Part shown: piece by piece, positions 8,268-25,692 of the stretch
How the letters are laid out: every line of letters starts with the position of its first letter
Numbering within the stretch: the first letter of the stretch is position 1
Assembly (NCBI GenBank): GCA_027003115.1
Contig: JALWYS010000065.1
Location: forward strand, 4,655 to 68,654
Direction: 5' to 3'
Source: Deltaproteobacteria bacterium
Lineage (GTDB): Bacteria > Desulfobacterota > Dissulfuribacteria > Dissulfuribacterales > QOAL01
Length of the DNA stretch: 64,000 nt
Made by a program: the position numbers and the translations under genes
The notes under the pieces: generated by a model
Seen by the model: the letters and a program-made list of their open reading frames with translations, nothing else
What the model was told of the DNA's origin: nothing
Database searches by the model: none

Positions 8268-11200
8268 ATGGCAAAAAGCGGTTCAATATTGGTCCTTGGA
8301 GGAGGCGTGGCTGGTGTTCAGGCTGCGCTGGACCTTTCCGAGCTTGGCTATTACGTCTACCTTGTGGAGAAAAAGGCGTCCATTGGCGGGGTTATGGCCC
8401 AACTGGACAAGACCTTTCCCACAAATGACTGTTCGTTGTGAATTTTAGCTCCCAAGCTTGTTGAGGCCGGTCGGTCTCCAAATATCGAAATACTCACAAA
8501 TGCCAAGTTAGAGGCCCTTGAGGGAAAGCCTGGAAGCTTTATTGCAAGGATTTACCAGGAACCCAGGTACATAAACGAGGATTTGTGCACTGCCTGCGGC
8601 ATGTGCACCATGTACTGTCCAAGGCCCGTGGTGGACACCTACAACGAGCGTCTGGACATTACAAGGGCCCCTCATATAGATTACGCTCAGGCGATTCCAT
8701 CCAGCTACTACATTGATGCAAAGGCGTGTCTCAGGGTGAACTATGAGACGTGTAACCTTTGTGCCCAGACCTGTACAGCAGGGGCCATAGACTTTACCCA
8801 GCAGCCAAAGGAACTGGATCTGAGTGTGGGTGCCGTGGTGCTGGCCCCTGGATTTGGCCGGGTTGACGAAAAGGTGCTGGAGAAGTTCGGTTATGGACGA
8901 TACCCGGATGTGCTCACATCCTTTGAGTTTGAAAGACTGACCTGTGCCTCTGGGCCAAGCGAAGGTCACATTGTTCGTCCATCGGACAACAAGCGCCCGA
9001 AAAAGATCGCCTTTCTCCAGTGCATAGGTTCAAGGGACGAGACCTGCGGAAACGGTTACTGTTCTTCCGTATGCTGCATGTACGCAATAAAGGAGGCCTC
9101 GGTCGCCAAGGAGCATGAGCCTGATCTTGACATATCCATCTTTTTCATGGACGTGCGTACCATGGGAAAGGGCTTTGATGATGCCAGAAAGCGCGCCCAG
9201 GAAAAATACGGCATAAATGTCATACGGGCAAGGGTTCCTAGGGTTGACCAAGTGGATGGAAAGCTTGCCCTTACCTGGACAACAGGTGACGGAGAGCACC
9301 ACTCCGGCCTTTTTGACATGGTTGTCCTCTCTGTTGGGCTTGAATCCCCGGAGGATGCCGATCTCATCTCCCGGGTGGCAGACATAGAGCTCAACCACTA
9401 TAATTTCTGTCGCACTTCAGTGGATGCGCCCCTTGTTTCTTCCAGAAACGGGGTGTTGGTGGCAGGTGCCTTCCAGGGGCCAAAGGACATCCCTGAATCT
9501 GTAACCCAGGCATCGGGTGCGGCCGCCATAGCCTCGGAACTGCTGGCAGAAGCAAGAAACAGCCAGACCGTAACGGTGACATACCCGGAAGAGGACAAGG
9601 CCCTTGAGGAGGAAGAGCCGCGCATTGGTGTTTTCGTCTGTCACTGCGGTGTGAATATCGCTGGAGTGGTGGATGTAAAGGCAGTGCGTGACTACGCAGG
9701 CACCCTTCCTGGGGTGGTGCTTTATGAGGACACGCTTTACTCCTGCTCACAGGATGCCCTTAAATCAATAGCTGAAAAGATCAAGGAGAACAGGCTAAAT
9801 AGGGTGGTCATATCCGCCTGTTCCCCAAGGACCCACGAGCCGCTCTTCCAGGAGACGCTTCGCTCCATAGGTCTTAATCCTGCCCTTGTGGAGATGGCCA
9901 ATATCAGGGACCAGTGTGCATGGGTCCATGCCCAGGAACCTGAAAAGGCCACGGAGAAGGCAAAGGACCTTGTTCGTATGGCCGTTGCAAAGGCACGGCT
10001 TCTTGCCCCCCTTGAACAGCCCACTGTGGATGTGACCCCATCCGCCCTTGTAATCGGCGCAGGCGCTGCAGGCATGTCTGCGGCCCTTTCCATAGCAGAT
10101 CAGGGTTACAAGGTGGTGCTCGTGGAAAAGGGAAGATCCCTTGGCGGAAACCTCAAGAGGCTTACCTGGACACTGGATGGACAGGATGCCTCCAAGGTCT
10201 TAAAAGACATGGTCAAGAAGGTAAAGGCCCACAGGAATATAGAAGTGCTGACCTCGGCCCAGGTAGAGTCTGTTTCCGGATACGTTGGAAACTTTACCAG
10301 CACCATAAGCAAGGGCGGCAAGACCCAGATGATAAACCACGGTGTAATAGTGCTTGCGACTGGTGGCCGTGAGTACAAGCCAAAGGGCTATGGCTACGGG
10401 GACAGCACCAGGGTCATGACCCAGCTAGAGCTGGAGGAGAAACTCGCCAGGGGCAAGGGTTTTTTAAGAAATGCCAAGAACGTTGTGATGATTCAGTGTG
10501 TCGGCTCCCGTGGAGACGACATGACCCACTGCAGCAGGCTTTGCTGCACCCAGGCGGTCAAAAATGCCTTGAAGCTCAAGGAGGCAAAGCCTGAGGTCAA
10601 CGTCTTTGTATTCTATAGAGACATGAGGACCTACGGCTTCTATGAGGATCTATACAGGGAAGCAAGGAAGAAGGGCGTAAAGTTCATTCGTTATACCTCC
10701 GACAGGAAGCCCGAGGTGATAAAGCTTTCCCGCGGCATAAAAGTAAGGGCCTACGATGAACTCATTGGCGATGACATAGAAATACCAGCAAGCCTTGTTG
10801 TCCTTTCAACAGGAATTGCACCTGGGGATAACCAGGAGCTTTCAAAAATTATCAAGGCACCCCTTACTTCAGATGGATTCTTCCTTGAGGCACATGCAAA
10901 GCTCAGGCCTGTGGAGGTGGCTGTTGACGGTGTTTACCTTTGCGGACTTGCCCACGGGCCAAAGAGCCTTGAGGAGTCGGTGGCACAGGCCAAGGCGGCT
11001 GCAGCCAAGGCCACCATTCCCCTTGCCAAGGGAAAGGTAGCGGTTGCTCCCATAGTATCAAAGGTGAATCAGGACCTCTGTATTGGCTGTGGTATTTGTG
11101 AAAGCCTCTGCCCCTTCAATGCCATAACTCTTGAGAAGGTTGGCAAGCGGAAAAAGGCCCGTACCATCACGGCCTCTTGCAAGGGTTGTGGAATCTGTGC

Positions 11201-11303
11201 CTCCCACTGTCCCACCATTGCCATATCCATGGGGGGCTTTACAGACGAGGCCATCATGGCCCAGATCCATGCCTTTTCGCCAGAAGGATGCGAGGAGGAA
11301 TAG
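8268..11303 (+). CDS. hdrA: HdrA-like heterodisulfide reductase subunit A; selenoprotein (UGA at 8439-8441) with a tandem two-module architecture of about 1011 aa
   Basis: ATG 8268 opens [68 protein letters not shown]. The frame is the same as ORF 8583..11303 and has no other stop. The TGA sits where the HdrA DCS(M/L)C-ILxPK motif has Cys/Sec. The second half repeats the HdrA N-terminal domain ([12 protein letters not shown]), an FAD fold ([14 protein letters not shown]) and a C-terminal 2x[4Fe-4S] ferredoxin. Confidence 0.88.
8463..8478 (+). promoter_or_regulatory. candidate bacterial SECIS apical hairpin for the hdrA UGA
   Basis: GAGGCC-GGUC-GGUCUC forms a 6-bp stem (one G-U pair) with a GGUC loop. 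The loop starts 30 nt after the U of UGA at 8439. Confidence 0.5.
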
Positions 11304-11306
11304 GGC

Positions 11307-12110
11307 ATGGCGCAGGAAAACGTTTTGGAAAAGGAGAACGAGATGGCCCAGGAGGGTTTTGAACCGAGGATATTGGGTTTTTTCTGCCACTGGTGCTGTT
11401 ACGCTGCTGCAGATGCAGCCGGTGTTTCAAGGTACCAGTACCCCCCGAACGTGCGTGTCATAAGGGTCATGTGTACAGGCAGGATAGACACACGTTTTAT
11501 CCTTGAGGCCTTCAGGTGCGGAGCAGACGGGGTCTTTACCGGCGGCTGACACCTCGGGGAGTGTCATTACCAGTCTGGTAATTACGAGGCAATGATAGTG
11601 GCAGAAACCTGCAAGCAGTTCCTTGCAGACTGTGGCATCAATCCTGACCGCCTTACCCTGGAGTGGGCATCTGCAGCAGAGGCGCCCCGATTCGTGGAAC
11701 TCATTACCGGTTACGTAAACAACATCAAGGAAAAGGGTGAGATAGGCGCTGCGGAAGGGGAGGTGGACTCTGCGACCATCAAGCGCAGGCTCAAGGCAGC
11801 GGTCAAGGCTGCTGAGGCAAGAAAGCCTAGGAGTGCCCTAGGTATGTTGGCCAAGAAGCTTCATAAGGATGGTGAATATTCAAAGGAGGCCATAGCCAAG
11901 GGTGTTTCCTCAAAGATTGTTCCTGCCCTCCGTGCAGAAAGGATCAAGGAGGAGATGATACTTCTCCTTAGGGATGGGCCCATGGATATTGATGCGCTCT
12001 GCAGTGCCCTTTCTGCAAAGAAAGAAGAGGTGGAAAAGCCCCTTTCACAGCTGCAGAAAAAGGGTGTTGTCGAGGAGCAGGATGGAAAGTTCAAACTTAC
12101 AGGCAAATAA
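11307..12110 (+). CDS. mvhD: MvhD-like (methyl-viologen-reducing hydrogenase delta subunit family) selenoprotein with a C-terminal extension; UGA at 11547-11549
   Basis: ORFs 11307..11549 and 11592..12110 share a frame and are joined by an open stretch. The sequence [37 protein letters not shown]...[19 protein letters not shown] aligns to the MvhD GCHxGDCHY motif, with TGA at the first Cys. GAGGAGG lies upstream of ATG 11307. Confidence 0.88.
11552..11589 (+). promoter_or_regulatory. candidate SECIS hairpin for the mvhD UGA
   Basis: The outer stem pairs CCUCG (11552-11556) with CGAGG (11585-11589). The inner perfect 7-bp stem pairs AUUACCA (11566-11572) with UGGUAAU (11576-11582) around a GUC loop. 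The loop lies 26 nt after the UGA. Confidence 0.6.
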
Positions 12111-12132
12111 GATTCGGTGACAGGAAAAAAAC

Positions 12133-12684
12133 ATGACTGTTCAAGCCGCTAAACTAAACAGTGATTTTATCAAGGACATAGCCGCCCATGAAGGGTGTGA
12201 GACCGCGGCCATGTGTTTTTCATGTGGCTCCTGTAGCGGCGTGTGTCCTGTAGAAAAGGTGGTGGATGATTTTGATCCGCGTAAGATCGTCCATATGGTG
12301 GGTCTTGGTATGGAGGATTCATTGATTAACGGTGAGACCATCTGGGCATGTTCTCAGTGCCAGAGCTGCATACCCGTTTGTCCCCAGAATGTTAGGTGCG
12401 CAGACATCATAAAGGCCCTAAGGGACGAGGCTCTTAAGCGAAAAAGCGTTGATCAGGAGCGTCTTAAGGCTCTTGGTCTCTTTGCAGTGGTTGATCCGGG
12501 AAAGTGCGTGGCCTGTCTCACCTGCGTAAGGCTTTGCCCCTTTGGGGCACCTTCCATGACCGAGGAGGGATACGCCGTGATAGAACCGGATCTTTGCCAT
12601 GCCTGTGGAATATGTGTGCTTGACTGTCCGGCACAGGCTATCTCGCTTGCGCCGTCACTTGAGGCAAAGGGGGCACAACAATGA
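12133..12684 (+). CDS. HdrC-like iron-sulfur protein fused to an extra 2x[4Fe-4S] ferredoxin domain
   Basis: Four CxxCxxCxxxCP-type motifs: CFSCGSCSGVCP, CSQCQSCIPVCP, CVACLTCVRLCP and CHACGICVLDCP. The first pair has HdrC-like spacing. Confidence 0.7.
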   Translation: MTVQAAKLNSDFIKDIAAHEGCETAAMCFSCGSCSGVCPVEKVVDDFDPRKIVHMVGLGMEDSLINGETIWACSQCQSCIPVCPQNVRCADIIKALRDEALKRKSVDQERLKALGLFAVVDPGKCVACLTCVRLCPFGAPSMTEEGYAVIEPDLCHACGICVLDCPAQAISLAPSLEAKGAQQ

Positions 12685-13046
12685 GCAAGATAAAGGGCTT
12701 TTGCTGTAACTATACCCTGAGCGTTGAGGTGGATGCTCTTAAAGAGGAGGGCCTTGTGCCAGAGGATCTTGAGATAGAAAGGCTTCCATGTACCGGGAGG
12801 TTAGAGGTTCCCGAGATACTGGATGCCTTCACCCAGGGGGCTGAGGCGGTTTTCGTTGTAGGCTGCCAGGTGGATAAGTGTCATAACCTTTCAGGTAGTT
12901 ACCGGGCATCAAAAAGGGTCAAGTATGCCAAGAAAATCCTTGAGGAACTTGATATGAATCCAGACCTTGTGGAGATGTTTTTTGCAGGGCGAGGAGAGAC
13001 AGAGCCAGTGGTAGAGGCTGCAAGAACCATGGCATCCAGGGCCTAG
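12681..13046 (+). CDS. mvhD: second MvhD/FlpD-family protein (all-Cys version)
   Basis: The pattern FCCNYT...LPCTGRLEVPEILDAFTQGAEAVFVVGCQVDKCHN parallels the MvhD fold and its Cys ligands. The start overlaps the upstream stop (ATGA). Confidence 0.8.
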   Translation: MSKIKGFCCNYTLSVEVDALKEEGLVPEDLEIERLPCTGRLEVPEILDAFTQGAEAVFVVGCQVDKCHNLSGSYRASKRVKYAKKILEELDMNPDLVEMFFAGRGETEPVVEAARTMASRA

Positions 13047-13097: not shown

Positions 13098-13766
13098 ATG
13101 ATAATAGCAGAAAGAAAACCCATGAAGGAGCTGCTGGAGATGGTCTCCGATGTAAAGAAGCTCCTGATAGTAGGCTGCCGGGGTTGCGTGGCAGTTTGCT
13201 CTGCAGGAGGCGACAAGGAGGTCAGCATCCTTTCAGCAGCATTGAGGCTTGGAGTTAAAAGGGCCGGTGGTGAAATAGAGATCCATGAAGATACCCTGGT
13301 TCGTCAGTGTGATCCAGAATACATAGATCCATTGAATGACAAGGGGGCAAAGTACGATGCAGTCCTTTCAATGGCGTGTGGCGTTGGGGTCAATTTTGTT
13401 GCCGACAGGTGTCCGGATGTAAATGTGCTGCCTGCTTTAAACACCACCTTTTACGGGGCAAATCTTTCAAGTGGGGAGTGGAAAGAGATGTGTGCAGGCT
13501 GTGGGGCCTGCGTCCTTCACCTGACTGGAGGCCTTTGCCCTGTGGCCAGGTGTGCAAAAAGCCTTTCCAACGGCCCGTGCGGCGGTTCCCAGGGTGGAAG
13601 ATGTGAGATCAACCCCGATGTGGACTGTATTTGGCAACAGATTTACGACAAACTATCCAGTATGAACCGTAAAGAGGAGCTCAGGCAGATTATGCCCATG
13701 AGGGACTGGACTACTGCTGGACATGGAGGGCCACGTCGGAGAATAAGGGAGGACTTGCTACCGTGA
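13098..13766 (+). CDS. metV: MetV, Cys-rich small subunit of acetogen-type methylene-THF reductase
   Basis: The N-terminus MIIAERKPMKELLEMV plus many Cys motifs (GCRGCVAVCS, CAGCGAC, CPVARCAK, GPCGG) are typical of MetV. It sits immediately 5' of metF with an overlapping TGATG junction. Confidence 0.8.
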   Translation: MIIAERKPMKELLEMVSDVKKLLIVGCRGCVAVCSAGGDKEVSILSAALRLGVKRAGGEIEIHEDTLVRQCDPEYIDPLNDKGAKYDAVLSMACGVGVNFVADRCPDVNVLPALNTTFYGANLSSGEWKEMCAGCGACVLHLTGGLCPVARCAKSLSNGPCGGSQGGRCEINPDVDCIWQQIYDKLSSMNRKEELRQIMPMRDWTTAGHGGPRRRIREDLLP

Positions 13767-16700
13767 TGTCTGGAAGCAATTTTGAAAACGTACTTCGTTC
13801 TGGGACCTTTGCAGTCACAGGCGAATTGGGGCCACCCAAAAGCGGCGATATGGAAGTTGTCAGGAGAAAGGCCAGGATTCTAAAGGGCCATGTGGATGCC
13901 GTAAACATCACAGACTGTCAGACTGCAATCGTGCGGATGTCGAGCCTTACTGCAGGTCTCATTGCCCTGTCTGAAGGGGTTGAGCCTGTCATGCAGATGA
14001 CCTGCCGTGACCGTAACAGAATCGGCATGCAGGCAGACATCCTTGGAGCCTCTGCCCTTGGAATAAAGAATCTTCTGTGTCTTACAGGCGACCATCAAAA
14101 GTTTGGGAATCATCCCCAGGCCAAGGGTGTCTTTGATATGGACTCCATTCAGCTCCTCCAGATGGTCAGGGGCATGAGGGATGAAAAACGGTTTCAGTGT
14201 GGCGAGGAGATAAAGAAGGCTGAGCCAAAACTCTTTCTTGGGTGTGCGGCAAATCCCTTTGCGGATCCCTTTGAGTTCAGACCTGTCAGGCTTGCAAAGA
14301 AGGTGGATGCAGGGGCAGACTTTGTCCAGACCCAGATCATATATAATGTGGAAAAGTTCAAGAAGTTCATGGAGATTGCCAGGGATCTTGGCCTCCATGA
14401 AAGGTGCTTCATACTGGCAGGTGTGACACCACCAAAGTCCCTGGGAATGGCCAGGTACATGAAGAAATTTGTTCCTGGGCTGGATGTTACGGACGATGTC
14501 ATACAACGTCTTCAGGACGCCAAAGACCAGAAGGAAGAGGGCATTGACATCTGTGTAGACATCATCAAGCAGGTCCAGGATATTCCAGGGGTTTCCGGTG
14601 TTCATGTAATGGCCATTGAGTGGGAAGAGGCTGTACCCGAGATAGTAAAGAGGGCAGGCCTTTCACAAAGGCCAGAACCCAAGGGCATAGAGCCTGTTCT
14701 TACAAGCGGTAGTGCCATTGACGAGGCAGTTGAAAAGGCCCGCAGGGAGGCCAGGCTTGAGCTTGAGGGCGAGCTTGAAAAGGTGAAGGCCGAGGCACAG
14801 GCCTCAAGAGATCTGCTGGCAAAAGAAAAAGAGAAGGTTGCCTCTGAGATTTCAAATCTCAAGAAGCAGGTAGAGGAGGCAAAGAGCATGGTAAGCCGTA
14901 AGGAGGCTGAAATACAAAAACTTACTGAGGAATTGCAAAAGGCAAAAGAGGCAGCTTTAGACACAGCTGCCCAAGCACCTGCAGCCTCTAAAGAGGCAAT
15001 AGCCGGAGAACAGGAGGCCACCGTTACGGTTTCTTCCGGCGCTTTGAGTGCCAGGGAACAGCAGGTGCTGAGTTCACTCAACAAGGGGCTTGTTGCCCTT
15101 AAGGAAGTCTTGGGGCTGAATGACGCCCAGTTCGAGGCCATGAGACGGTTCCTTGAGGCGGAGTTCATGCTCCAGCTTGGAACTGTAGTAAGGGAAACTA
15201 CACAGGTTGCGGAGGCTCCCCGGGTACAGCCTGAGGCGCCACCTGCCCCGGCTACCGAGGCACCTGTTGTGGAACCAGTGGAGGAGACAAGGCCTGCGGA
15301 AGAAGAAAAACCGCAAAGGCCCAAGGAGGTTGTGAATCTGGTTGCCCAGGGCAATGTGGCCCTTCATGCCAAGGATTTCAAGAAGGCCCTTGAGCTGTTT
15401 AAAAAGGCCCTTGAGATTTCCCCTGAAGATGAGAAGGCCAAGGAAGGGCTTGAAGCGGCAAGAAAAGCCCTTTTAGAGGAGAAAGAGGCAGCAGATAAGG
15501 CAGTGAAAATCAAGGAGGTTGAAGGTCTTCCTCCATGCCCTGAAGAGATAGACCCGGATGAGTGGAAGCGCAAGTGGATAATTCGTTTTACAGCCCGTGG
15601 TAACGTTGCCCTTATGAAGGGCGACTTTGAAACTGCAAAGAAGGAGTTTCAAAAAGCCCTTGATCTTGATCCAGATTATGAAAAGGCAAAGGATGGCCTA
15701 GCCAGGGCCGAAAAGGGCGAAGACATATTCGTACCTGATGTGAAGCCAGGCGAGGTTGAGGCTGCAGCTCCTGCCCCTGAAGAGAAAAAGATAGAGAAAG
15801 AGGTTGTAGAGGCAAAAGAGGAAAAGCCTGTTAAAGAGGAAGCTGTTGAGGAGAAACCGGCTCCGCCAAAAGAGGCAAAGGAAGAGGAAGTAAAAGAGGC
15901 ACCAAAGCCCAAGGCAAAGGTTGAGATAAGTGCTCCTGCCGGAGAGGGCGTCGGAGATCTGGAAGTGGCTCCGTTTCCAAAGGATGAGCCGCCACTTGAA
16001 GAGCGAGCCAAGGGTATTCCTGAGGAGGTTTACAAGGAGCCGTGCACTGGAGTTATTCAGAGTGTGACAATAGGGGATGGAGACAAGGCCATTACAGTGG
16101 GAGGAGAGACGGCCCTGCCTTTCCATGCCTTTGAAGGCGATATTCCCAACCTTCCAAGGACGGCCTTTGAGGTGCTCGATTCCCCACCCGAGGAATGGCC
16201 CGAAGTGCTCCTCAAGTATTATTCCGACGTTGTAAACGATTCAGCGGCCTGGGCCAGAAAGTGTGTCAACGAGTTTGGCGCCCAGGCAATATGTCTGTCC
16301 CTTGATTCAACAGATCCCAATGGTGCCAACGTGTCATCAGCGGATGCCGCCCAGGTGGCCAAAAAGGTCATAGAGGCCGTTGATGTTCCCATCATCCTGT
16401 GGGGCTGTGGTAATGCTGAAAAGGACACCGAGACCTTGCGTGAGATAACAGGGCTTGTTGAAAATAGAAATGTTTGTATAGGTCCTTTGACCGACGCCAA
16501 CTACCGCACCCTTGGGGCAACGGCCATGGCATTTCAGTATCCTGTTGTGGCCTCTACTCCCATAGATGTAAACCTTGCAAAACAGCTGAATATTCTCCTC
16601 GAAAACCTGGGTGTTCATCTAGACCATATCCTAATGGATCCGTCCATTGGCGCTGTGGGTTACGGGCTTGAGTACACCTATTCTGTAATGGAGAGAATAA

Positions 16701-16951
16701 GACTTGCTGCACTTACCCAGCAGGACGAGAAATTGTCACCGCCCATTATATGTAACCTGGGAAGAGAGGTATGGAAGGCCAAGGAAACAAGGCTTCCAAC
16801 CGATGCCGAGCTTGGCGACCAGGAGAAAAGGGGCGTGCTTATGGAGGCAATTACCGCCTCAACCCTCCTTCTTGCAGGGGGAGAGTTGACTGTTATGCGG
16901 CATCCAAAGGCCATAAACCTTACAAACGTCCTTGTTGAAGGGATGTTGTAA
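13763..16951 (+). CDS. metF-acsD: fusion protein: methylene-THF reductase MetF (aa 1 to about 300), a linker of about 450 aa (coiled coil, TPR-like, Pro/Glu/Lys-rich), and corrinoid Fe-S protein small subunit AcsD (aa about 750-1062)
   Basis: One uninterrupted 1062-codon ORF; the start is GTG 13763 or ATG 13766. The N-terminus (FAVTGELGPPKS, NITDCQTAIVRMSS, MQMTCRDRNR, LCLTGDH) is MetF. The C-terminus from about nt 16010 (TVGGETALPFHAFEG, PIILWGCGNAEKD, VASTPIDVNLAKQLN, MDPSIGAVGYGLEYTYS, VMRHPK) is AcsD/CfsB. Confidence 0.85.
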   Translation: MMSGSNFENVLRSGTFAVTGELGPPKSGDMEVVRRKARILKGHVDAVNITDCQTAIVRMSSLTAGLIALSEGVEPVMQMTCRDRNRIGMQADILGASALGIKNLLCLTGDHQKFGNHPQAKGVFDMDSIQLLQMVRGMRDEKRFQCGEEIKKAEPKLFLGCAANPFADPFEFRPVRLAKKVDAGADFVQTQIIYNVEKFKKFMEIARDLGLHERCFILAGVTPPKSLGMARYMKKFVPGLDVTDDVIQRLQDAKDQKEEGIDICVDIIKQVQDIPGVSGVHVMAIEWEEAVPEIVKRAGLSQRPEPKGIEPVLTSGSAIDEAVEKARREARLELEGELEKVKAEAQASRDLLAKEKEKVASEISNLKKQVEEAKSMVSRKEAEIQKLTEELQKAKEAALDTAAQAPAASKEAIAGEQEATVTVSSGALSAREQQVLSSLNKGLVALKEVLGLNDAQFEAMRRFLEAEFMLQLGTVVRETTQVAEAPRVQPEAPPAPATEAPVVEPVEETRPAEEEKPQRPKEVVNLVAQGNVALHAKDFKKALELFKKALEISPEDEKAKEGLEAARKALLEEKEAADKAVKIKEVEGLPPCPEEIDPDEWKRKWIIRFTARGNVALMKGDFETAKKEFQKALDLDPDYEKAKDGLARAEKGEDIFVPDVKPGEVEAAAPAPEEKKIEKEVVEAKEEKPVKEEAVEEKPAPPKEAKEEEVKEAPKPKAKVEISAPAGEGVGDLEVAPFPKDEPPLEERAKGIPEEVYKEPCTGVIQSVTIGDGDKAITVGGETALPFHAFEGDIPNLPRTAFEVLDSPPEEWPEVLLKYYSDVVNDSAAWARKCVNEFGAQAICLSLDSTDPNGANVSSADAAQVAKKVIEAVDVPIILWGCGNAEKDTETLREITGLVENRNVCIGPLTDANYRTLGATAMAFQYPVVASTPIDVNLAKQLNILLENLGVHLDHILMDPSIGAVGYGLEYTYSVMERIRLAALTQQDEKLSPPIICNLGREVWKAKETRLPTDAELGDQEKRGVLMEAITASTLLLAGGELTVMRHPKAINLTNVLVEGML

Positions 16952-21534: not shown

Positions 21535-21560
21535 ATGGTGGGTCATTCCCACCATTTTTG
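21535..21560 (+). terminator. intrinsic-terminator-like hairpin between acsE and fdhA
   Basis: ATGGTGGG (21535-21542) pairs with CCCACCAT (21548-21555) around a 5-nt loop and is followed by TTTT. Only about 17 nt remain before the fdhA ATG. Confidence 0.55.
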
Positions 21561-21576
21561 TATGGAAAGGTTGCAA

Positions 21577-24500
21577 ATGGCTGAATCAATCAAAATCACG
21601 CTAGACGGCAATGAGATCAAGGCCAAAAAGGGTCAGACAATCCTTCAGGCTGCAAGGGAGGCGGATATCAAGATACCCACCCTTTGTTATCTTGAAGGAG
21701 GCAGTGATTCTGAACGGCCCTGTCTTTTGTGCATGGTTGAGGTGGAGGGGATTGGCAGGGTCAGGGCATGTAATACCTTGGCTGAGGATGGACAGGTCAT
21801 AACTGTTCATTCCAAGGACCTGGATGCCTTCAGAAAGGAGAGACTCACAAGGCTTGCGGAGAGCCACTACGGGGACTGCCGGGCTCCATGTAATCTTACC
21901 TGCCCAGGCGGCATAAACGTCCAGGGATACGTAAACCTCATTGCCAAGGGCGAATACAAGGCTGCCCTCATGCTCATAAAGGAGAAAAATCCCCTGCCCA
22001 TTTCCGTTGGCAGGGTTTGCCCCAGGTTTTGCGAAACAAGGTGCAGGAGGATACTCCTCGATGAGCCCATAGCCATAAACCACTTAAAACGTTTTGTTGC
22101 CGATTATGCCTCTGAAATGGGTTTCAGGGATGATGTCGTGGGAAAGCCTACAGGAAAGAAGGTGGCTATAATCGGTGGGGGCCCTGCAGGCCTTTCCTGT
22201 GCCTATTTCCTTAGAAAGCAGGGGCATGATGTCACTATATTTGAGGCAGAGGAGAAGCTTGGAGGGCTTTTAAGGTATGGAATTCCCGGCTACAAGCTTC
22301 CAAACAAGGAGGTGGACAAGGAGGTCCAAAATATCCTAAATCTTGGTGTCCACGTAAAACTTCAAAAGAAATGGGGCCAGGATTTCACCATCAAGGACCT
22401 TAAAGATCAGGGCTATGGGGCGGTCTTCATTGCTACCGGACTTTCAAGGCAGAAGAAGCTTGAGATAGAGGGGGCAGAGCTTGCCATTTGCGGTCTAAAG
22501 TTTCTGAAAGAGGTGAACAAGGGTGGAGCCCCTGCGGTTGGCGAACAGGTCCTGGTGGTTGGAGGCGGTGACATAGCAGTTGACGCTGCCAGAAGTGCAC
22601 GGCGACTTGGCGCTAGAAACGTCACTGTCATCTATCCTCGTTCGCGGGTTGAGCTTCCGGCCCACCAGCGGGAGATAGAGGAGGCGGAAAAGGAAGGGGT
22701 TCAGTTTTTCCTCATGGCAACCCCCCTTAAAATCACTGAAGAAGAGGATAAGCTGAAGGTGGAGATGGCCCGGACAATCCTGGACGAGCCTGATGAAAGG
22801 GGAATCAGGCACCCAATCCCAATGCCGGGTTCGCGTCTTTACTGGACAGGAGATACAATTATTTCAGCCCTGGGCCAGGAAGGCGATCCAACATTTCAAA
22901 GCTTTGGTGAGATCGAGGCCTCCATCAAGCTTACTCCAAGAAAGACCATAAAGACCCATCCAAGCACCATGAAGACCAGTGTGGATGGCATTTTCGCAGG
23001 AGGTGACGCAGCCACCGGTTCAAGGACAGTGATACAGGCCGTTGCCGGAGGAAGAAGGGCTGCTGAATCCATCCACGAATACCTCATGAAGGAGAAGGCC
23101 GGGATAACAGAGGCCAGATTCAACTTCACCAAGGGCAAGCGCTTTGAAGACGTGGACATGCACAATTTCGACGGCTATTCTATTCAGCTGAACGAAGTAA
23201 TGCCTTCCAGGCCTCCTGAAAGACGGATCGGTGATTTTGACGAGGCAAATCTTGGTTTTTCAGAAGAGATGGCGGTTCGCGAGGCCAAAAGGTGCCTGCA
23301 ATGCGGATGCCTTGGGCTTTCAAAGTGCACCTACAGGGAGCTTTGCGTTGATTACAAGGTCAAGGCAAATGTTTCCCATACAAGGCTTAAATATCCAGTT
23401 GACAGAAGCCATCCCTTTATTGTCATCGATGCAAATAAGTGCATAGGCTGCACAAGGTGCTTGAGAAGCTGTAAATATGGTGCCCTTGAGCTAGACATCA
23501 AATGGGATGAGAAGTCCCAGGTCATTCAGGATGTATCCATCAGGCTTAATGAAAAATGCGTATCATGCGGGGCCTGTGTGGATGCCTGTCCTACTGGTAC
23601 CCTTTCCAAGCAGGACCTTGTAATTCCACTTTTTCCAGAGCAGGTAACCAAGGTAAAGAGCGTTTGCACTTACTGTGGCACGGGCTGTAGCCTTGACGTG
23701 GTTTCCAAGTATGGGGCCATTTTGGAGGTGAAGGCCGATTCGTCAAGACCGCCAAATTGGGGACAGCTGTGTGTAAAGGGCAGGTTCGGTTACACCTTTT
23801 ACAGGCATGAGGAGAGGCTCAGAAGGCCCCTGGTAAGGGATAACATCGATGAGCCTTTCAGAGAGGTGGATTGGGACGAGGCCCTTCGGGTGCTGGCTGC
23901 CCGCCTTAATGCCATTCGGGACAATTTCGGCTCTGATAGCGTTGGAGTCCTTGCCTCATCAAGGTGTACCAACGAGGAAAACTATCTTCTCCAGAAGCTT
24001 GCCCGTGCAGCCTGGGGCACAAACAATGTGGATAACTGTGCCCGGGTCTGACACGCTCCTTCTGTCAGCGGTCTGCTGGCGACACTGGGAAGCGGAGCAG
24101 CAACCACACCCTTCGAGCAGATTATAGGTACGGACTGTCTCTTGATCTGCGGCTCTAACACCACTGAGGCCCATCCCATCGTTGCGCTCAAGGTGAAAGA
24201 GGCAGCAAGGACAGGAACCGACCTCATAGTCATTGACCCAAGACGAACAGAAGTTGCCTCCATTGCCCAAGAACAGCCAGGCGGTTTGTTCTTGAGGGTG
24301 GCGCCTGGAGGAAACATCCCCCTTCTCAACTCCATCTTGTACTGCATCATTGAAGAGGGGCTAATAAACGAGGACTTCATATCAAAACGGACAGAGCATT
24401 TTGAGGCCATAAGGAAACATGTAAAGGATTACCCCCCTGAAAAGGTGTATCAGATAACGGATGTTGATCCGGAACTAGTGAGGGCTGCTGCTCGAAAGTA

Positions 24501-25692
24501 CGCCTCCTCCAAAAATTCCCTTATCCTCTACGGCCTTGGAGTTGCCGAGCACAAGGGTGGCACGGCCGGGGTAATAGCTCTGGCAAACCTTGTCCTGGCA
24601 ACAGGTCAGGTAGGCAAGCCCCACAGCGGCATAAATCCGCTAAGGGGGCAGAACAACGTGCAGGGAGCCTGCGACATGGGGACCTTGCCTTACACCTTCC
24701 CGGGTTATCAGCCAACTGATGATCCAAAGGTGCTTGAGAAATTTTCCAATGCCTGGGGAGTGAGCAGTCTTCCGGTATCAGACGGCCTTCTTGAGCCCCA
24801 GATGTACGATGCGGCCCTTGAGGGCCGATTCAAGGCACTTTACTGTGTAGGTTACGACCCTGCCCAGACCCAGTCTAACATTGGCAAGGTGCACGAGGCG
24901 CTAAAGGCCATGGATCTTGTGATGGTTCAGGATCTCTTTCTCACGGAAACAGCCAAGTTTGCCCATATTGTCCTGCCATCTGCCTGTTTCTATGAAAAGG
25001 ATGGTACCTTTACAAGTGGTGAGCGACGGGTAAGACGTGTCAACAAGGTCATAGATCCGCCTGGAAAAGCAAAGGCAGACTGGGAAATAATTTGTCTCGT
25101 TTCCCAGGCCACTGGATATCCCATGTTTTATACTGGGCCTGAGCAGATAATGGCAGAAATAGCAAGGGTGACCCCGGCCTATGCAGGTATCAGCTACGAC
25201 AGGCTTGGGGACAACGGAATGGTCTGGCCATGTCCCTCTCCCGACCATCCGGGAACCCCACTTCTCCATACGGGAAGTTTCCCGAGGGGTAAGGGTACAT
25301 TTGTGCCTGTCTCCTATATCATTCCAGAAGAGGAGGCTGATGAAGAGTATCCCTTTGTTCTCATTACCGGAAGGCGGTTGGAACATTACAACAACGGTTC
25401 CATGACTAGACGCTGCGAGGGATTTGACCGGCTGTGTCCAGAGGAGCTGGTGGAGATAAATCCGGAAGATGCGGCACGGCTCAAGGTGGAAGATGGAGCC
25501 GTGGTTAAGGTGGAATCAAGACGTGCCAGAATAAAGGCCAGGGTCAAGGTCACAGAAAGAAGTAAGCCTGGGGTGGTGTTTATGACCTTCCACCATCAGG
25601 ACACCTTGACCAACTTCCTTACGAGTCCTGGCATGGACGCCAAGACCCTAACTCCTGAATACAAGGTGTGCGCAGTGAGAATCAAACCATAA
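21577..25692 (+). CDS. fdhA: selenocysteine formate dehydrogenase, single-polypeptide fusion (2Fe-2S ferredoxin + GltD/NfnB-like NAD(P)H-FAD module + 4Fe-4S domains + Mo/W-bisPGD catalytic domain); UGA at 24049-24051
   Basis: ORFs 21535..24051 and 24142..25692 are in the same frame with an open junction. The junction reads NNVDNCARV-TGA-HAPSVSGL, the classic FdhA Sec site. The N-terminus has CYLEGG...CLLC...C (2Fe-2S). Next come CRAPCNLTCPGG...GRVCPRFCETRC, VAIIGGGPAGLSCA and VLVVGGGDIAVDAA (GltD-like), then CIGCTRCLRSC, CVSCGACVDACP and CTYCGTGCSL. I prefer the start MAESIKI at 21577. Confidence 0.9.
24064..24080 (+). promoter_or_regulatory. SECIS hairpin for the fdhA UGA
   Basis: GUCAGC-GGUCU-GCUGGC forms a 6-bp stem (one U-G pair). 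The loop starts 21 nt after the UGA and closely resembles the E. coli fdhF apical GGUCUGC element. Confidence 0.75.

Follow-up and report, generated by a model that had tools for sequence, protein, structure and literature searches.

We analysed a 64,000-nt stretch of contig JALWYS010000065.1 from a Deltaproteobacteria bacterium (assembly GCA_027003115.1, positions 4,655 to 68,654 of the forward strand), hereafter called the window, and focused on two genes in it that encode MvhD-type electron-transfer adaptors, MvhD1 and MvhD2. The first-pass annotation had read MvhD1 as a selenocysteine (Sec) protein decoded through an in-frame TGA and MvhD2 as its Cys-containing paralogue. The genes and features that matter here, all on the + strand, are the following.

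8268 to 11303 (+): HdrA, a tandem two-module protein with Sec58 in module 1 (TGA in 63/67 orthologues; synonymous sites frozen).
11307 to 12110 (+): MvhD1 (copy 1), 267 codons, with an FlpD/MvhD domain (residues ~18-145), a helical linker and a C-terminal winged helix.
11547 to 11549 (+): in-frame UGA of MvhD1, read as Sec81 (TGA in 74/80 genomes, TGT/TGC in 6/80).
11566 to 11582 (+): putative bacterial Sec insertion sequence (SECIS) core, a 7-bp hairpin AUUACCA-GUC-UGGUAAU (RNAalifold, frozen synonymous sites, loss in 5/6 Cys-type orthologues).
11919 to 12107 (+): C-terminal winged helix-turn-helix (wHTH) region of MvhD1, limits approximate (weak Pfam HTH matches, homologue domains, P0002 model).
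12133 to 12684 (+): Fe-S protein with an HdrC-like N-terminal half (HdrC 8rvv_C, E 3e-18, residues 6-119) and a 2x[4Fe-4S] ferredoxin-like C-terminal half.
12681 to 13046 (+): MvhD2 (copy 2), 121 aa, MvhD fold, Cys-only, without the wHTH tail (PF02662 E 3.5e-27; model TMq 0.83 to 5odc_D).
13098 to 13766 (+): MetV (DUF5981, methylene-tetrahydrofolate (THF) reductase C-terminal domain; PF12225 E 2e-36).
13763 to 16951 (+): MetF-TPR-AcsD (CdhD) fusion, conserved downstream of MvhD2.

The intergenic distances from hdrA through metF are 3, 22, -4, 51 and -4 nt, indicating that these genes form one operon. The 3-nt gap separates the HdrA gene from the MvhD1 gene, and the TGA stop of the Fe-S gene overlaps the start of MvhD2.

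Read in a single frame, positions 11307 to 12110 encode one 267-codon protein with one in-frame TGA (11547-11549), and MvhD1 is one gene. The PF02662 (FlpD) domain covers residues 22-142 and is unbroken across the TGA (E 5e-49). The FlpD scores of MvhD1 (165.7 bits) and MvhD2 (95.3 bits) both exceed the Pfam gathering cutoff of 22.3, and these are the only FlpD genes of the window. A search of 5.8 billion proteins revealed two types of relatives. The first are full-length proteins of 254-270 aa, up to 61% identical and colinear with MvhD1, that carry Cys at the TGA column. The second are many fragments of 168-173 aa (60-99% identity), each corresponding to the part of a UGA-containing gene that follows the UGA. 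In the alignment, the TGA column matches the invariant Cys of the full-length homologues and Cys62 of MvhD2. MvhD1 also matched the MvhD chain 5odc_D (E 2.7e-43).

Behind the FlpD domain, MvhD1 has a tail of about 120 extra residues that ends in a winged helix. The window protein itself gave weak Pfam HTH matches, and many 41-47%-identical homologues carry HTH_5/MarR/IclR-type Pfam domains there. The model of P0002, a 61%-identical Cys orthologue, has a C-terminal helix-helix-helix-beta-hairpin (pLDDT 75-98) and superimposes on the MvhD chains 5odc_D and 8rvu_F with TMt 0.85-0.90. The start of MvhD1 is ambiguous, as both ATG 11307 (GAGGAGG upstream) and ATG 11343 (AAGGAG upstream) look usable. 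Orthologues below ~65% identity align with MvhD1 only from residue ~13.

To evaluate the conservation of the TGA, we scanned one genome per GTDB species and found 80 loci, nearly all from Thermodesulfobacteriota/"Deltaproteobacteria" metagenome-assembled genomes (MAGs), plus the cultured Thermodesulfatator autotrophicus. Codon 81 is TGA in 74 of the 80 species-level genomes and TGT or TGC in the other six, at identities down to 48%. The frame is intact and strongly conserved on both sides of the TGA across the UGA orthologues. A stop codon that is kept at one site of an intact conserved frame and gives way to Cys codons in some orthologues is a classical mark of Sec. Since the conserved UGA alternates with Cys codons in an intact frame, we read TGA 11547 as a Sec codon. 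Genome-wide recoding of TGA was ruled out, because TGA ends 12 of 40 window genes, including the neighbouring Fe-S gene.

At two loci (L045, L046), HdrA keeps Sec (TGA) while MvhD1 has Cys (TGT). No locus with both codons readable showed the opposite, Cys-HdrA beside Sec-MvhD1. One contig (L062, JAIWHJ010000031.1) is assigned to a Promethearchaeota (Asgard archaeon) MAG and carries the same bacterial-type Sec-HdrA/Sec-MvhD1 pair with 49% identity and the same hairpin, reflecting either a binning error or horizontal transfer.

We then located the Sec residue in the MvhD fold. MvhD1 aligns with ElpC (8rvu_F) without gaps, the query residue being the chain residue plus 15. Sec81 therefore falls on ElpC Cys66 and on Cys67 of MvhD (5odc_D); His82 and Glu85 take the places of MvhD His68 and Asp71, and Cys30 that of MvhD Cys16. 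In VhuD of Methanococcus maripaludis (9sfi_K), the non-standard residue X stands exactly at the Sec81 column. In methanogen MvhD, Cys16 is an "additional" Cys that is not a ligand, while His68 and Asp71 face Cys202/Cys205 of HdrA (PMC13580544). Four conserved Cys remain once Cys16 is set aside, which indicates that MvhD Cys13, 42, 67 and 72 are the cluster ligands (PMC13580544). All four positions are present in MvhD1 (C27, C56, U81, C86) and in MvhD2 (C9, C37, C62, C67). We infer from this conservation that Sec81 is one of the four [2Fe-2S] ligands, in agreement with the earlier statement that the motif cysteines of MvhD ligate its cluster. MvhD1 also keeps the equivalents of Cys16, His68 and Asp71 as C30, H82 and E85 (Asp to Glu), features that have been described for methanogen MvhD only. 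As the first-pass annotation had stated, MvhD/VhuD selenoproteins are known, and a list of verified selenoproteins includes this family (PMC13188914).

The second copy differs from the first in several respects. MvhD2 indeed reads VVGCQVDKCHN at the position equivalent to the Sec site, with Cys62 in the TGA column, but the two proteins share only 33% identity over 111 residues. Its model has a pLDDT of 91. C8, C9, C37, C62 and C67 are invariant in 35 MvhD2 homologues, Thr occupies the Cys16 position, residues 63 and 66 (the His68/Asp71 positions) are variable, and there is no C-terminal extension. Every one of the 87 MvhD2 homologues detected is full length and has Cys, never TGA. Of the 72 loci whose sequence extends far enough downstream, 65 have MvhD2, among them all six genomes with Cys-MvhD1 (L045, L046, L054, L061, L066, L067). 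The operon indeed holds an adaptor with the hallmarks of Sec beside one that always has Cys, as had been proposed.

Such a pair could be a selenium backup, in which Sec-MvhD1 and Cys-MvhD2 are isofunctional for the same site and the Cys form steps in under selenium shortage, like Vhu/Vhc in Methanococcus. Sec and Cys do stand in the same column, methanogens have Sec/Cys isoenzyme pairs (PMC13518236), and the same idea was put forward for Desulfobacterium autotrophicum (PMC2702500). However, the identity is low, the wHTH tail occurs in MvhD1 only, and MvhD2 is without the equivalents of Cys16, His68 and Asp71 (PMC13580544). A backup would also have little to replace in the six Cys-MvhD1 genomes, four of them with Cys-HdrA, yet MvhD2 is kept there. 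In addition, the tight co-transcribed operon (22-nt gap, 4-nt overlap) leaves no obvious room for differential regulation, and HdrA of the same operon has no Cys backup. We consider a backup pair improbable. The two copies fall into separate orthologous groups, each at a constant place in the gene order. Together with the low identity, the different architecture and the retention of MvhD2 beside Cys-MvhD1, this supports MvhD1 and MvhD2 as distinct, non-redundant subunits, in line with the earlier suggestion that the copies may serve different partners rather than acting as simple backups.

To examine the RNA downstream of the UGA, we calculated codon entropy at 74 codon columns with a conserved amino acid in 75 UGA-bearing sequences. 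The entropy was 0-0.18 only at His87, Tyr88, Gln89, Gly91 and Asn92, and 0.57-2.41 at all other columns. The frozen codons CAU UAC CAG nnU GGU AAU spell a 7-bp hairpin AUUACCA-G[U/G][C/U]-UGGUAAU with a loop of GUC, GUU or GGU, and the RNAalifold consensus is exactly this hairpin. In MvhD1, synonymous sites are constrained only after the UGA. Among the six orthologues of the Cys type, the hairpin codons drift (UAU, CAA, GGA, AAC) and five of the six have lost the hairpin. In the window, it occupies +20 to +36, counting the U of the UGA as +1, and its loop starts 23 nt after the UGA. This distance and the G-first loop fit the bacterial SECIS pattern (fdhF, bSECISearch models). A UGA-linked hairpin with frozen synonymous sites is the signature of a bacterial SECIS, and we regard this 17-nt element as a putative SECIS core. 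The first-pass annotation had described a strong nested hairpin here. The inner stem-loop held up at the same position, while its strength did not, and the outer stem CCUCG/CGAGG was rejected as part of the element, with 78% of cells paired and one pair broken in 22 of 35 sequences.

Two other genes of the cluster are also selenoproteins. The HdrA gene (1011 codons) has a TGA at 8439-8441 in the motif DCSL-U-IL, forming a CxxU pair. This Cys55-x-x-Sec58 pair is found only in HdrA module 1. Codon 58 of HdrA is TGA in 63 of 67 orthologues and TGT in four, and the four Cys-HdrA genomes are the same ones that have TGC in MvhD1. A hairpin GAGGCC-GGUC-GGUCUC lies at 8463-8478 (+25 to +40), and its synonymous sites are frozen in the 63 UGA forms and relaxed in the four TGT forms. 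The CxxU pair would match the Cys202/Cys205 pair that is conserved in HdrA of methanogens (PMC13580544); its motif also makes a match with the Cys-Sec197 pair of M. maripaludis HdrA probable (PMC13518236). The other gene is an FdhA fusion (21535-25692, ~1385 codons), in which a 2Fe-2S/GltD-like NAD(P)-binding flavoprotein part precedes a molybdopterin formate dehydrogenase. Its TGA (24049-24051) stands in the classical NCARV-U-HAPSV motif, and the GGUCU loop of a downstream hairpin lies 18 nt past the UGA. That 16 kb hold three Sec-type UGAs, each with a G(G)UC-type loop, argues strongly that this organism decodes Sec. A hydrogenase-like open reading frame (ORF) at 660-2429 (589 aa), in which a hydrogenase small-subunit domain (Oxidored_q6) is fused to [NiFe] large-subunit segments, was checked for a C-terminal Sec as well; it ends in DPCITCAVH, a Cys-type site.

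The conserved UGA, the UGA-linked hairpin and the two further Sec-type UGAs support MvhD1 as having the hallmarks of a genuine selenoprotein. Several observations weigh against this reading and against the roles we assign to the two copies. The hairpin is weak (free energy -4.5 kcal/mol) and is not the minimum-free-energy structure of the single sequence. The structure proposed by the first-pass annotation lies 1.7-2.9 kcal/mol above the minimum: it reaches -11.0 kcal/mol against -12.7 kcal/mol for the best fold of the same 46 nt and -13.9 kcal/mol for the 60-nt stretch, and the region folds no better than shuffled sequences (z -0.54). Folding of single sequences alone is not informative, and the comparative data are decisive. 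Covariation was sought in the stem and none was found, with shuffles not meaningfully exceeded. The stem never varies, so that it offers no compensatory changes, and we used synonymous-site constraint instead. No Rfam SECIS model matched at the gathering score and a permissive scan (E<=10) gave only chance matches (e.g. CRISPR-DR11, E=2), a negative that carries little weight since Rfam holds few bacterial SECIS models. We found no selA, selB, selD or tRNA-Sec in the 64-kb window (49 ORFs scanned). The full-length structural model is that of the 61%-identical orthologue P0002, not of the window MvhD1, and cluster ligation by Sec81 is drawn from conservation and published text, not from coordinates. 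For MvhD2, partner assignment comes from gene neighbourhood only. MvhD2 and the MetF-AcsD arrangement occur together at 52 loci, are both missing at 6, and MvhD2 occurs alone at 3, a co-occurrence that is confounded by phylogeny.

Some of these points would suit a readthrough of the UGA without selenium, by a near-cognate Cys or Trp, in which the hairpin serves pausing, mRNA stability or protein binding. The hairpin is short and invariant without covariation, and no Sec machinery lies within the window. However, the hairpin occurs only with UGA and decays in the Cys forms, its distance and loop follow the bacterial SECIS pattern, two more UGA-plus-hairpin sites stand at canonical Sec positions of the cluster, and the homologous residue is Sec in the solved VhuD chain. 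This makes selenium-free readthrough very improbable.

That the TGA is a true stop, so that the gene yields an 80-aa fragment plus a 172-aa protein with a start of its own, or is a pseudogene, is hardly tenable: automatic calls on six public contigs do give 80 + 172 aa and a GAGG precedes ATG 11592, but it lies only 2 nt from that ATG, the ATG is replaced by a non-start codon for Leu, Ile or Val (CTT/CTC/CTG/CTA/ATA/ATT/TTA/GTA) in 15 of 68 UGA orthologues, 74 species-level genomes share the TGA at this codon and conserve the frame before and after it, the synonymous-site constraint begins only after the UGA, and the cluster-binding motif would be cut in two. The first-pass annotation had named independent initiation at this ATG and SECIS prediction as checks on its proposal. 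The codon replacements speak against a restart, and RNAalifold together with the synonymous-site constraint gave the 17-nt hairpin, with no match in Rfam.

Taken together, we favour the reading in which Sec-MvhD1, made through the UGA and its SECIS, is an adaptor to Sec-HdrA and MvhD2 is a second, non-redundant adaptor, and we give this account as a whole a probability of about 0.78. The ribosome would decode UGA 11547 as Sec, with a SelB-type factor presumably recruited by the minimal SECIS (11566-11582) inside the coding sequence. Sec81 would replace a ligand Cys directly before the His/acidic pair that in methanogen complexes faces the CxxC(U) pair of HdrA. From this placement follows the proposed role of MvhD1 as an HdrA adaptor. 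MvhD1, with a selenium-ligated [2Fe-2S] cluster, may dock on the bifurcating HdrA module whose CxxU pair it faces. It may pass electrons to, or take them from, the bifurcating FAD of this Sec-containing tandem HdrA, whose gene lies directly upstream. The wHTH tail of MvhD1 probably has the same task as the wHTH of BamF in class II benzoyl-CoA reductase, which is to hold another subunit (bioRxiv 10.64898/2026.04.10.717634).

MvhD2 appears to be an old divergent paralogue that kept the four ligand Cys and has neither the junction features nor the wHTH tail. It may act as a second, plain [2Fe-2S] relay of the same HdrA/HdrC-like/MetV/MetF(-AcsD) complex, most likely wiring the MetV/MetF side. The operon product would be an HdrA-based methylene-THF reductase/methyl-THF dehydrogenase complex of the Moorella type, with the MetF-TPR-AcsD fusion likely as its catalytic end. 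A more detailed arrangement is a doubtful possibility that we offer only tentatively: the Sec81 selenolate ligand would stand against HdrA Cys55-x-x-Sec58, two selenium atoms would line the [2Fe-2S]-to-flavin junction, and MvhD2 would be a non-equivalent second adaptor on the other HdrA half (or on the HdrC-like protein), wiring MetV/MetF-AcsD. If true, this would be a bacterial two-adaptor HdrA architecture, unlike the solved methanogen or benzoyl-CoA reductase complexes.

The operon is part of a Wood-Ljungdahl cluster on the + strand, with genes for formate-THF ligase, FolD and carbon monoxide dehydrogenase upstream of HdrA, MvhD1, the HdrC-like/ferredoxin-like Fe-S protein, MvhD2, MetV and the MetF-TPR-AcsD fusion. 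AcsB, AcsC, a pterin-binding protein and the GltD-like/FdhA fusion follow further on. The gene order HdrA-MvhD1-FeS-MvhD2-MetV-MetF is kept across most of the 80 loci. Positions 13763-16951 encode a single 1062-aa protein with MetF, TPR repeats and an AcsD/CdhD (small corrinoid Fe-S protein subunit) domain. Of 61 related loci that are long enough, 52 have AcsD after MetF, always together with MvhD2. Operon variants were found at loci L061, L083 and L084, and at L057, L078, L085 and L086. In some lineages, a second tandem HdrA and a third MvhD are inserted between MetV and MetF. In other lineages, MvhD2 and the MetF-AcsD fusion are missing; a divergent MetF stands there instead, and after it come another Fe-S protein and a second HdrA. 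Among the 49 window ORFs scanned, no CCG-domain protein (HdrB) was found, and HdrC occurs only as the half fused to the ferredoxin-like half. A PDB search gave no solved relative of MetV, so that there is no template for a MetV/MvhD2 contact.

Sec at the VhuD position and Sec-HdrA/Sec-MvhD pairs in Deltaproteobacteria are already known, and Sec-MvhD and Sec-HdrA are established selenoprotein families. The conserved Cys-only MvhD-like subunit in a metVF-linked operon, the 17-nt SECIS core and the mis-annotation of both genes appear undescribed in the papers we searched. Public calls split MvhD1 (80 + 172 aa) and HdrA (57 + 900 aa) in a widespread Thermodesulfobacteriota operon. Because both genes are split, a Wood-Ljungdahl/methylene-THF reductase module is mis-annotated and its selenium dependence goes unnoticed in sulfate reducers, including ANME-partner lineages. 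The family-specific minimal SECIS could serve to detect genes of this kind and repair their annotation. The analysis also places selenium on both sides of the MvhD-HdrA junction, at an HdrA-type bifurcation step that structural papers still call unresolved. The cultured relatives Thermodesulfatator autotrophicus and Dissulfuribacter thermophilus might be useful systems for that junction.

We compared the element and its operon with known systems. The SECIS of Escherichia coli fdhF is a hairpin that lies within the coding sequence, a short way past the UGA. SelB binds its core, the 17-nt upper stem-loop, whose apical loop contains G and U. The putative MvhD1 core shares the location within the coding sequence, the length of 17 nt and the G/U-containing loop. 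However, its sequence differs, its predicted loop has 3 nt (GUC/GUU/GGU) instead of GGUC, 16 nt separate the UGA from the hairpin base, and no bulged U is predicted.

Among the protein families, MvhD1 has the fold, the PF02662 domain and the conserved Cys pattern in common with methanogen VhuD/MvhD (9sfi_K, 5odc_D), whose role is that of a [2Fe-2S] adaptor to HdrA (PMC6019823, PMC13518236). As in VhuD, where the non-standard residue (X, i.e. Sec) of 9sfi_K stands at the Sec81 column, Sec falls on a predicted ligand position. Unlike these proteins, MvhD1 has a bacterial host, an extra helical and wHTH tail of about 120 aa, and MetV/MetF as its partner module instead of a hydrogenase or Fdh. The representative VhuD has two Sec, one of them in a CxxU motif (PMC13188914), whereas MvhD1 has one Sec and Cys30 at that position. 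Both copies score below the NCBIfam VhuD cutoff of 215 bits (MvhD1 118.6, MvhD2 83.9).

Closer to this host, Sec-mvhD genes beside Sec-hdrA/hdrL were reported in 2009 for Desulfobacterium autotrophicum HRM2 (PMC2702500). By that description, it shares with our locus a deltaproteobacterial sulfate-reducing host, a Sec-HdrA gene directly followed by Sec-MvhD, and a Wood-Ljungdahl genome. A second MvhD-like gene with Cys only, in an operon linked to metVF, is not part of that paper's account.

The class II benzoyl-CoA reductase of Geobacter metallireducens contains BamF, an MvhD-homologous adaptor with wHTH and Sec, together with BamE (bioRxiv 10.64898/2026.04.10.717634). As described, BamF/BamE resemble our pair in the combination of Sec with a wHTH extension and in the pairing with a fused double HdrA, and the Cys59-x-x-Cys62 pair of the first BamE module can be compared with Cys55-x-x-Sec58 of HdrA here. 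In BamF, however, Sec is residue 19, at the "Cys16" position close to the cluster, while that of MvhD1 is at the position-67 residue. BamF is described with two Rossmann domains, whereas the MvhD1 tail is helical, and the reductase has one adaptor per BamE, while the operon studied here encodes two MvhD-type proteins.

Finally, the operon differs from the Moorella-type complex in that no HdrB gene was found in it, its HdrC is joined to a ferredoxin-like half, its HdrA is a selenoprotein as well as a tandem fusion, two MvhD-type genes are present, and MetF is fused to TPR and AcsD. It resembles that complex in encoding HdrA, MvhD, MetV and MetF together in a Wood-Ljungdahl context, with an MvhD-type gene directly upstream of metV.

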